A stretch of 37,380 bases of DNA from Escherichia phage vB_EcoS-569R4: sequence record ON470598, one strand, 5' to 3'. The position numbers and the translations under genes were made by a program. Of this stretch, positions 4,536-5,326 are shown piece after piece. Position 1 is the first letter of the stretch, and each line of letters starts with the position of its first letter. The notes under the pieces are model-generated. The model had not been told where the DNA came from, ran no database searches, and was given only the letters and a program-made list of their open reading frames with translations.

Positions 4536-4736
4536 ATGACAACTGACGATATCGAAAGCTACTTCGGCAGTATTGAGAAAGTTGCTGCTTTTTTCGGCAT
4601 AACAACTGAAGCCGTTTATCAGTGGCGAAACCGTCCGGGCCAGTTAATTCCAAAAGGACGTGCAGCAGAAGCTGCATATAGAACTTGCGGACGGTTGCCA
4701 TTTAAACCTGAGCTTTATGAAAAATCTAATGGATAA
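4536..4736 (+). CDS. cro: Cro-like small HTH regulator (66 aa)
   Basis: Small ORF divergent from cI with a GGAGGG SD; HTH-like segment (VAAFFGITTEAVYQWR). Confidence 0.75.
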   Translation: MTTDDIESYFGSIEKVAAFFGITTEAVYQWRNRPGQLIPKGRAAEAAYRTCGRLPFKPELYEKSNG

Positions 4737-4957
4737 ATCGATTAACAGAAACCACAGAACGATGAGGCTAACCGTGGGTAAGCATCACTGGAAAGTAGAA
4801 AAACAGCCTGAGTGGTACGTGAAAGCTGTCAGAAAAACTATCGCAGCGTTGCCGGGGGGGTTACGCTGAAGCTGCTGACTGGCTGGATGTAACAGAGAAC
4901 GCATTATTTAACCGCCTTCGTGCCGATGGCGATCAGATTTTCCCGCTGGGATGGGCA

Positions 4958-5326
4958 ATGATTTTGCAACGTGCTGGTGGAACTCACTTCATTGCAGATG
5001 CTGTGGCGCAGTCTGCAAATGGCGTCTTTGTGTCTCTTCCTGACGTCGAGGATGTGGACAACGCTGATATTAACCAGCGTCTGCTGGAAGTCATTGAACA
5101 GATCGGCAGTTATTCAAAACAGATTCGTTCAGCAATCGAAGACGGTGTAGTGGAACCGCATGAGAAGACAGCAATTAATGACGAGCTCTACCTCTCAATT
5201 TCGAAGCTGCAGGAGCATGCAGCACTGGTCTACAAAATTTTTTGCATTTCAGAAAGTAATGACGCCCGCGAGTGTGCAGCTCCGGGCGCCGTGGCGTGTC
5301 GTGACTGTGGAGAAACTAACGCATGA
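4958..5326 (+). CDS. CII-like early regulator, C-terminal portion; probably truncated by an upstream frameshift
   Basis: ORF in the cII position; the same frame is open back to 4823 with no start codon, and the upstream +1-frame ORF (4660..4869) ends just after a G7 run at 4854-4860. Confidence 0.5.

Follow-up and report, generated by a model that had tools for sequence, protein, structure and literature searches.

A one-base expansion of a G tract in ymfL, a putative 186-CII-type regulator gene of a lambdoid Escherichia coli prophage

Why does a regulator gene beside the immunity switch of a lambdoid prophage read as two open reading frames, and does the break belong to the phage or to the sequence record? 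The question was raised by a preliminary description of the 37,380-nt sequence of Escherichia phage vB_EcoS-569R4 (the whole stretch that was analysed, referred to below as the window). In that description a CII-like early regulator appeared to be split by a one-base shift within a run of seven G (G7), and three readings were left side by side: a sequencing or assembly error, a genuine inactivating mutation of a kind associated with cryptic prophages, and a slippage-prone tract. The gene, its family and its frameshift are already recorded in RefSeq annotation, and the lesion is an ordinary pseudogenising indel. What is contributed here is evidence that the allele is real and clonal, a fixed start codon, the placement of the lesion at the helix-turn-helix (HTH) and a structural tie between the encoded protein, YmfL, and CII of phage 186. 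YmfL-type regulators are common in prophages of Enterobacterales and are uncharacterised. Taken as a whole, the evidence makes it very probable that the window carries a genuine, clonally inherited insertion of a single G (G6 to G7) in ymfL, the gene that follows cro in this lambdoid prophage.

The split ymfL gene, its start codon and its surroundings

A megablast comparison with 5,426 complete E. coli genomes gave the split gene its name, ymfL, known from the e14 prophage of K-12. In NZ_CP018991.1 (strain Ecol_AZ146), which is identical to the window over 901-nt and 25-kb queries and 99.95% identical over 36 kb, PGAP annotates ymfL with the limits 4774-5326 in window coordinates and the note 'frameshifted'. 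The surroundings are those of a lambdoid immunity region (Table 1), in which the DUF4222 ORF is followed by a gene for an HTH_36 replication-type protein. In the window ymfL adjoins cro in the cI/cro switch region, and the same order is found in loci of Klebsiella, Citrobacter and Cronobacter, the succession cI, cro, ymfL being kept across genera.

Table 1. Features in and around ymfL, in window coordinates.
Feature	Coordinates	Strand	Remarks
CI-type repressor gene (HTH_3 + Peptidase_S24; LexA-like, self-cleaving type)	3812..4438	-	Divergent from cro
cro-like gene (P22_Cro family)	4536..4736	+	Immediately upstream of ymfL
Conserved element AACCACAG-N12-AACCGTGGG	4750..4778	.	Spans the ymfL ribosome-binding site and GTG start
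ymfL pseudogene (putative 186-CII-type regulator)	4774..5326	+	PGAP 'frameshifted', same limits in NZ_CP018991.1; family matches of the repaired product
ymfL 5' fragment, V/MGKHHWKVEKQPEWYVKAVRKTIAALPGG-LR then TGA, 31 codons	4774..4869	+	Translation, Shine-Dalgarno; holds predicted helix 1 (13-25) only
G7 homopolymer	4854..4860	+	Sequence, alignment and exact-allele counts; closest intact alleles have G6
ymfL remainder, Y30 to A183 and stop, now in the +1 frame	4862..5326	+	Predicted HTH (29-48), helical core and two long C-terminal helices
Orphan 122-aa ORF, from the first in-frame ATG (Met62 of YmfL)	4958..5326 (TGA)	+	Lacks a Shine-Dalgarno
ymfM-like ORF, 112 aa	5323..5661	+	ATG overlaps the ymfL stop (ATGA)
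DUF4222 ORF	5502..5681	+	PGAP; frame differs from that of ymfM, whose 3' half it overlaps

The run GGGGGGG, the site of the inserted G, is the only run of seven or more G or C in the window. As the preliminary description had it, the frame of the ORF called at 4958 is open back to 4823, behind a TGA at 4820-4822, with no ATG, GTG or TTG before 4958, and the upstream frame ends at a TGA (4867-4869) that begins 7 nt past the last G of the tract. The upstream ORF, given there as 4660..4869, has the stop as described, but its GTG at 4660 is only the start of a mechanical longest-ORF call. Deletion of one G from the tract fuses the two frames into a single ORF, also as proposed, and its 183-aa product, read from the GTG at 4774, is an exact letter match to a known 183-aa 'protein YmfL' that occurs on at least 1000 contigs. 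Because the repaired product equals known YmfL residue for residue, a chance juxtaposition of two ORFs is ruled out. Left unrepaired, translation from the same GTG yields 29 native residues followed by Leu-Arg-stop (31 codons in total), the frame being shifted after codon 29, between G29 and Y30.

Comparison with orthologous prophages, which had been suggested as a check, places the extra base in the window alone; all five aligned homologues are without it. Six G stand at the site (CCG GGG GGT TAC, encoding P-G-G-Y) in phage Kati and in strain FREC5, which matches the window at 99.9% over 901 nt. Strain A17 reads GGGTGG there and K-12 e14 GAGTGG, while SfII has an in-frame G7 that arises through a GGT to GGG change. 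These tract states in the aligned homologues identify the event as G6 to G7. In no product of the G7 allele is the DNA-binding motif joined to the oligomerisation helices, which makes the ymfL of the window a pseudogene.

Two details of the preliminary description, a gene start at 4717 and an intact protein of about 190 aa, call for correction. Position 4717 is the longest-ORF start, and the phage Kati record annotates it as well. It was rejected together with 4729 and 4762, since none of the three has a Shine-Dalgarno and the sequence 5' of 4750 is specific to the immunity type; ATGs upstream of the GTG at 4774 are absent from SfII and from most species loci. The GTG itself is preceded, at 6 nt, by a GAGG Shine-Dalgarno, and PGAP also places the start there. 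Homology between prophages of differing immunity type starts only at 4750; SfII, with no upstream ATG, reads AGGAGG and then GTG; and 66 distinct loci, representing dozens of Enterobacterales species, have a GTG start at a fixed position. Judged from these comparisons, the conserved ymfL start is GTG 4774 and not ATG 4717, and the intact protein is thus 183 aa long rather than about 190-202 aa.

The point at which homology begins also marks a conserved DNA element. The 8-mer (A)ACCACAG at 4750-4757 is near-invariant, and the sequence to its left varies freely. Of 66 distinct upstream segments, drawn from many genera, 62 have ACCACAG exactly 23 nt before the GTG start (ACCACAG-N16-GTG); the three loci without it (L021, L023 and L086), and the Salmonella locus L013 as well, start with ATG behind a different upstream gene. 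With CCGTGGG the ACCACAG motif forms an imperfect dyad, the two parts lying 21 bp apart and overlapping the start codon, and this arrangement is conserved in the same proportion of loci (62/66). Its geometry is very like that of the 186 CII operator, ATGTTTG-N13-CAAACAT, which lies at the start of cII; 186 CII contacts a pair of half-sites separated by two helical turns and turns on a leftward promoter for establishment. By this analogy, and purely as a hypothesis, the element at 4750-4778 is a candidate YmfL operator or establishment-promoter site. A consensus scan for promoters and terminators over 4380-5700 returned numbers at shuffle expectation; it found no leftward promoter near the ymfL start, and no pE-like promoter or -10 was assigned. 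An inverted repeat was not found at seed 6 in a search of 4700-4900, which turned up only a pair of short direct repeats whose meaning is doubtful.

Family and predicted fold of the repaired protein

The repaired protein passes the Pfam model PF06892, 'Phage regulatory protein CII (CP76)', scoring 51.1 bits where 26 is required (E = 1.7e-13) and aligning to positions 5-141 of the 146 in the profile. It also passes the NCBIfam model NF041471, 'YmfL family putative regulatory protein', with 168.1 bits (threshold 90) and an alignment that runs from position 2 to position 143 of 143, and it matches PHROG 101, 'CII-like transcriptional activator', with E = 4e-70. Alignment to the CII/CP76-type families had been proposed in the preliminary description, and these matches, together with the predicted fold, support its view of a CII-like early regulator split by a one-base shift in G7. 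The NF041471 family is characterized by a single uninterrupted ORF of approximately 183-189 aa, which the ymfL of the window is not. The likeness is to CII of the 186 type and not to that of lambda; the label 'CII-like' stands in the former sense and falls in the latter. In a scan at E <= 0.01, PF06892 was the sole Pfam match and the lambda CII profile, PF05269, was not matched. By this profile evidence YmfL is unrelated to lambda CII: it shares with lambda CII and P22 C1 (PF05269) the position after cro and a presumed role in the establishment of lysogeny, and it is not homologous to them. That the CII proteins of 186 and lambda are unrelated is also stated in PMC7708051.

CII of phage 186, the founder of PF06892, scores 163.6 bits against that model. 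Pairwise BLASTP between YmfL and 186 CII was not significant (E = 14), and hhalign, run with a 28-sequence YmfL profile on the one sequence of 186 CII, gave a weak match (E = 0.21) that was collinear over 103 columns. A phmmer search of YmfL against PDB sequences gave only a spurious zinc-knuckle match (E = 0.84). In the hhalign comparison, YmfL 'YAEAADWLDVTENALFNRLR' is aligned on 186 CII 'MAKLAERAGMNVQTLRNKLN', the stretch that holds V36 and Q37, and the 186 cII- mutations V36E/Q37S align to YmfL E41/N42. V36 and Q37 are HTH residues, mutation of which inactivates 186 CII (PMC7708051).

An AlphaFold2 model of YmfL, built from the 28-sequence alignment, has a mean pLDDT of 74.8, with values above 80 for residues 11-80 and 101-150. 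Helices are predicted at 13-25, 29-37, 41-48, 58-68, 72-80, 96-121 and 128-157, followed by a disordered tail at 161-183. When this model was compared with the PDB by Foldseek, ranks 1-8 were all 186 CII structures (6VLI, 6VPE and 6VMH), with probability 1.00 and E-values from 1e-3 to 1e-1; the target-normalised TM-scores of 0.44-0.67, up to 0.59 for long chains, describe a moderate and not a close match. Because the pairwise similarity is not significant, it is the Pfam HMM and the fold search that link YmfL to 186 CII. On profile and model together, YmfL belongs to the 186-CII family, as a remote but genuine member.

The lesion falls in the most conserved block of the family alignment, G28-W60, in which G28, G29, Y30, E32, A33, L37, N46-R49, G52-Q54, F56, P57, G59 and W60 are invariant. 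The frameshift lies at the N-terminal end of what is predicted to be the first helix of the helix-turn-helix. Among named relatives, the YmfL proteins of K-12 e14 and of the Shigella phages SfII, SfIV and SfV (NF041471) represent the same gene, with DNA identities from 4750 onward of 95% to e14 and 97-98% to SfII and SfIV. As in the window, their genes follow cro and overlap ymfM by ATGA. The copy in the window differs in its extra G, which makes it a pseudogene, and its cro/cI genes are of another immunity type than those of e14, being P22_Cro rather than YdaS-type.

Distribution of the G7 allele and competing explanations

A 72-nt probe centred on the tract was used to search the 5,426 complete E. 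coli genomes. The exact G7 allele (100% match) was present in 38 of the approximately 1,216 genomes that carry the ymfL segment; in the other 1,180 or so the segment is present with a different tract. The 38 genomes share what is essentially one prophage and are 100% identical over a 901-nt region. Their sources are unrelated: projects in Italy, Japan and Switzerland, FDA-ARGOS and several ST131 studies; the records of four bear the label O25b:H4-ST131. Over the first 25 kb of the window, 37 of the 38 are 100.0% identical, the next-best genome reaching 98.6%, and none of the genomes identical over this 25 kb has the same prophage with G6. G7 is fixed in one very recent prophage clone. Its closest G6 relative, FREC5, has the same integrase (WP_029700790.1), the same CI protein and an intact ymfL. 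The orphan 122-aa ORF was found on 833 contigs (1,327 collection blocks), mostly draft contigs of 5-20 kb, and the one such locus checked, in GCA_949767705.1, matches window positions 4536-5326 exactly, with G7. The allele can thus serve as a clean one-base marker for the lineage of a single E. coli clone with this prophage, represented by 38 complete genomes of which four are labelled ST131, and annotators should regard the 122-aa 'YmfL family' ORF on hundreds of contigs as a fragment.

An extra G introduced by sequencing or assembly, the gene being really intact, is extremely improbable in view of this distribution, even though homopolymer indels are a frequent long-read artefact and the same record has another 'frameshifted' pseudogene at a distance of 2 kb. 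Independent complete assemblies, 38 in number, have exactly seven G, the short draft contigs with the orphan ORF tell against an artefact as well, and the G7 state perfectly tracks one prophage clone. Sequence context alone does not yield a G7 call, because identical flanks of 32 and 33 nt enclose G6 in 53 other records from diverse hosts. The neighbouring pseudogene is present in FREC5 too, alongside an intact ymfL. Of the three readings left by the preliminary description, the assemblies and contigs select the genuine inactivating mutation. The cryptic prophage that accompanied this reading is not borne out: ymfL aside, a single pseudogene is flagged in the 37-kb prophage, the one 2 kb away, and the integrase is intact, so that ymfL looks like a single lesion in an otherwise complete-looking prophage and not part of a general decay. 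It is just as improbable that the split is functional, with the 31-aa peptide or the 122-aa ORF, or both, acting as separate proteins (for example, as a dominant-negative oligomerisation domain). The 122-aa ORF does keep the predicted long helices 96-121 and 128-157, which resemble the oligomerisation region of 186 CII, and it exactly matches a 122-residue PHROGs family, phrog_7487. Against this, the premature stop lies 89 nt before its ATG at 4958, and that ATG is not preceded by a Shine-Dalgarno. Further, homologues that naturally begin at this methionine, which would have spoken for two separate proteins, were absent among 28 aligned proteins: all of them have the upstream 61 residues, and in 27 of them Met62 is retained, as an internal residue. 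The N-terminus is likewise covered by tblastn in nearly all of 76 species loci, and phrog_7487 is most simply a collection of truncated calls of the same kind.

A functional slippage site, whether a phase-variable switch or a programmed or transcriptional slippage that gives a tuned low level of full-length YmfL, is very unlikely. Homopolymer contingency and frameshift sites are known from the poly-G phase-variable genes of Neisseria and Haemophilus and from dnaX, and the ymfL tract is like them in that the frame changes at a G run. Runs of G6-G7 are intrinsically slippage-prone, SfII tolerates an in-frame G7, and reasoning from the sequence, a -2 ribosomal shift in GGG GGG or the loss of one G from the mRNA would restore the frame. 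In contrast to such sites, ymfL has neither tract-length polymorphism nor conservation of the tract, and its out-of-frame state is limited to one clone, all other lineages being in frame. Exact-allele probes of the 5,426 genomes returned no G5 and no G8 allele, the clone has no G6 revertant, and neither a stimulatory structure nor a conserved shifty heptamer was seen. Among 66 species-representative loci with Gly-Gly-Tyr, the G run at the Gly-Gly site is 2 nt long in 41 and 3 nt in 22 (63 of the 66), and runs of 5, 6 and 7 nt occur in one locus each. The homopolymer is, as far as these loci indicate, an accident of codon choice in a few alleles of Escherichia, Shigella and Citrobacter and is not conserved. 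The slippage-prone tract of the preliminary description is therefore unsupported as a functional element; low-level rescue by transcriptional or -2/+1 ribosomal slippage on G7 may occur. Positive selection of the frameshift is somewhat less remote, and still unlikely. Under it, G7 would not be neutral: phage of a pandemic sublineage, at least partly ST131, would kill sensitive competitors and be unable to lysogenise them, or the expression of YmfM (SfiC) would be altered during SOS, or, in a weaker variant, slippage would supply a trickle of YmfL. The mutation is fixed in a successful clone with only one other pseudogene in its 37-kb prophage. The overlap of the ymfL stop with the ymfM start (ATGA) is shared by K-12, SfII and four divergent loci with the window; of 69 species loci that were scored, 31 have it, which suggests translational coupling in those lineages. 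The ymfM-like product differs from K-12 YmfM (the SfiC division inhibitor) at 3 of 112 residues, and ymfM causes SOS-inducible filamentation (bioRxiv 10.1101/2020.11.19.390815). However, hitch-hiking explains one event in one clone equally well, and convergent loss is not indicated, since 71 species loci yielded only one further independent ymfL frameshift. That frameshift, in Citrobacter murliniae (L073), lies ten codons further on, and its independence indicates that ymfL pseudogenes arise sporadically. In addition, ymfM has its own GGAG; sequestration of its ribosome-binding site, which would make exposure of the site depend on ymfL translation, was considered and rejected, the RNA fold being no better than shuffles (z = -1.4) and leaving the Shine-Dalgarno and AUG unpaired. 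A GWAS paper lists ymfL among quinolone-resistance-associated unitigs and gives no allele detail.

Probable history of the lesion and likeness to the 186 system

The preferred reading remains a genuine single-G insertion that spread by clonal inheritance. The step from G6 to G7 most likely arose by replication slippage. By its family, its position and the genetics of 186, YmfL would be a CII-type activator made from the early rightward transcript after cro, and by the same analogy ymfL is the probable lysogeny-establishment regulator of the prophage. After infection it would switch on leftward transcription of the repressor and probably also of the integrase. In 186, pE is the only promoter at which CII acts (PMC7708051); phage that lack active CII seldom establish lysogeny, and lysogens of a cII-HTH mutant grow normally (PMC8538670). 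If ymfL behaves in the same way, its loss should leave the maintenance and induction of the resident prophage unaffected, and phage released from G7 cells would establish lysogeny only rarely. The phenotype predicted for induced G7 phage is clear plaques and poor lysogenisation. The mutation then probably became fixed by drift and was carried along as its host clone, at least partly ST131, expanded. Because the lesion would cost the lysogen nothing, neutral fixation followed by clonal spread is the simplest history and probably the correct one.

The parallel with 186 on which these expectations draw has several parts. The two regulators share the Pfam model and an N-terminal HTH, and both appear to have long C-terminal helices followed by a disordered tail; 186 CII is rapidly degraded via its C-terminal region, and it is the C-terminal tail of YmfL that is predicted to be disordered. 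Both genes are carried on an early lytic transcript beside the switch. Similarly, cII is followed by fil in 186 and ymfL by ymfM in the window, both downstream genes encoding division inhibitors, and no sequence similarity was found between Fil and YmfM. The systems differ in that the window phage is lambdoid and not P2/186-like, and the activator role of YmfL is inferred. Finally, cII and ymfL each have a two-part conserved DNA element, with parts approximately 20-21 bp apart, at their own start codon, and the predicted fold match to 186 CII together with the ACCACAG-N16-GTG element offers a starting point toward the YmfL operator and the establishment promoter.

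Conserved sequence at the ymfL start

The coordinates of the features considered here are collected in the table. The heptamer ACCACAG is near-invariant: 62 of the 66 distinct loci, which represent many Enterobacterales genera, have it exactly 23 nt 5' of a GTG start, and the DNA to its left varies. The three loci that lack it (L021, L023 and L086) have an ATG start and a different upstream gene; an ATG start with a different upstream gene is also found in the Salmonella locus L013. Together with CCGTGGG, at a spacing of 21 bp, ACCACAG forms an imperfect dyad. This dyad is similar to the CII operator at the cII start of phage 186, and the element may serve as the operator for YmfL or belong to an establishment promoter. 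Alternatively, the same dyad could be read as a 4-bp RNA stem (CCAC/GUGG).

Features of the window around ymfL
Feature	Position	Strand	Remarks
Element (A)ACCACAG-N12-AACC-GTG-GG	4750-4778		Covers ymfL ribosome-binding site and start; at about 1170-1205 in L016-L091
ymfM-like ORF	5323-5661	+	112 aa
DUF4222 ORF	5502-5681	+	59 aa; TTG start; AGGAG Shine-Dalgarno; PGAP-annotated
Hypothetical gene	2498-2808	-	Second gene flagged 'frameshifted' by PGAP; just upstream of yfdP

Genes downstream of ymfL

In phage 186 (L009, 2436-3180) cII is followed by fil, and in the YmfL prophages (window 4774-5661) ymfL is followed by ymfM. A cell-division inhibitor directly after the CII-type regulator is common to both, although a comparison of Fil with YmfM revealed no sequence similarity. 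YmfM in K-12 is the FtsZ inhibitor SfiC.

The ymfM-like and DUF4222 ORFs share 160 nt, which each reads in its own frame, and in this region the RefSeq annotation of both the window and K-12 DH1 contains DUF4222 only. In divergent loci, the ATGA overlap with ymfL and roughly the first 50 YmfM residues are kept, and DUF4222 is also called. In the Klebsiella locus L010 the two are separate genes, with a ymfM-like gene (65 aa), Rha/ANT and DUF4222 in that order. Most of the DUF4222 ORF would lie inside the published ymfM clone.

Other ymfL alleles and related prophages

Shigella phage SfII (L007, about 2606-2612) and the S. flexneri locus L016 carry an in-frame G7 at the site of the ymfL tract through a GGT to GGG change, and a single slippage step in either direction would give these alleles a frameshift. 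The only other disrupted ymfL copy among 71 species-representative loci is that of Citrobacter murliniae (L073, about 1290-1310), where the frameshift lies about ten codons 3' of the Gly-Gly site and is independent of the insertion in the window. Proteins of 262-264 aa with P22_Cro and Phage_CP76 domains (P0003, which stands for 44 member sequences, and P0009) look like fusions of cro with ymfL that occur in some assemblies; the presumed cause is loss of a stop codon or a further frameshift.

Window positions 1-25000 match the Ecol_AZ146 genome (NZ_CP018991.1) at 100.0%, and the match over positions 1-36035 contains 15 mismatches and one gap opening, all of which therefore lie beyond 25000. 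Beyond 36035, in the tail-fibre region, the match is fragmented into pieces at 89-91%. The source of the window is therefore a sister strain whose tail-fibre end differs. The E. coli strain FREC5, in which ymfL is intact, has the same pseudogene upstream of yfdP as the window, and this pseudogene is thus older than the ymfL insertion.
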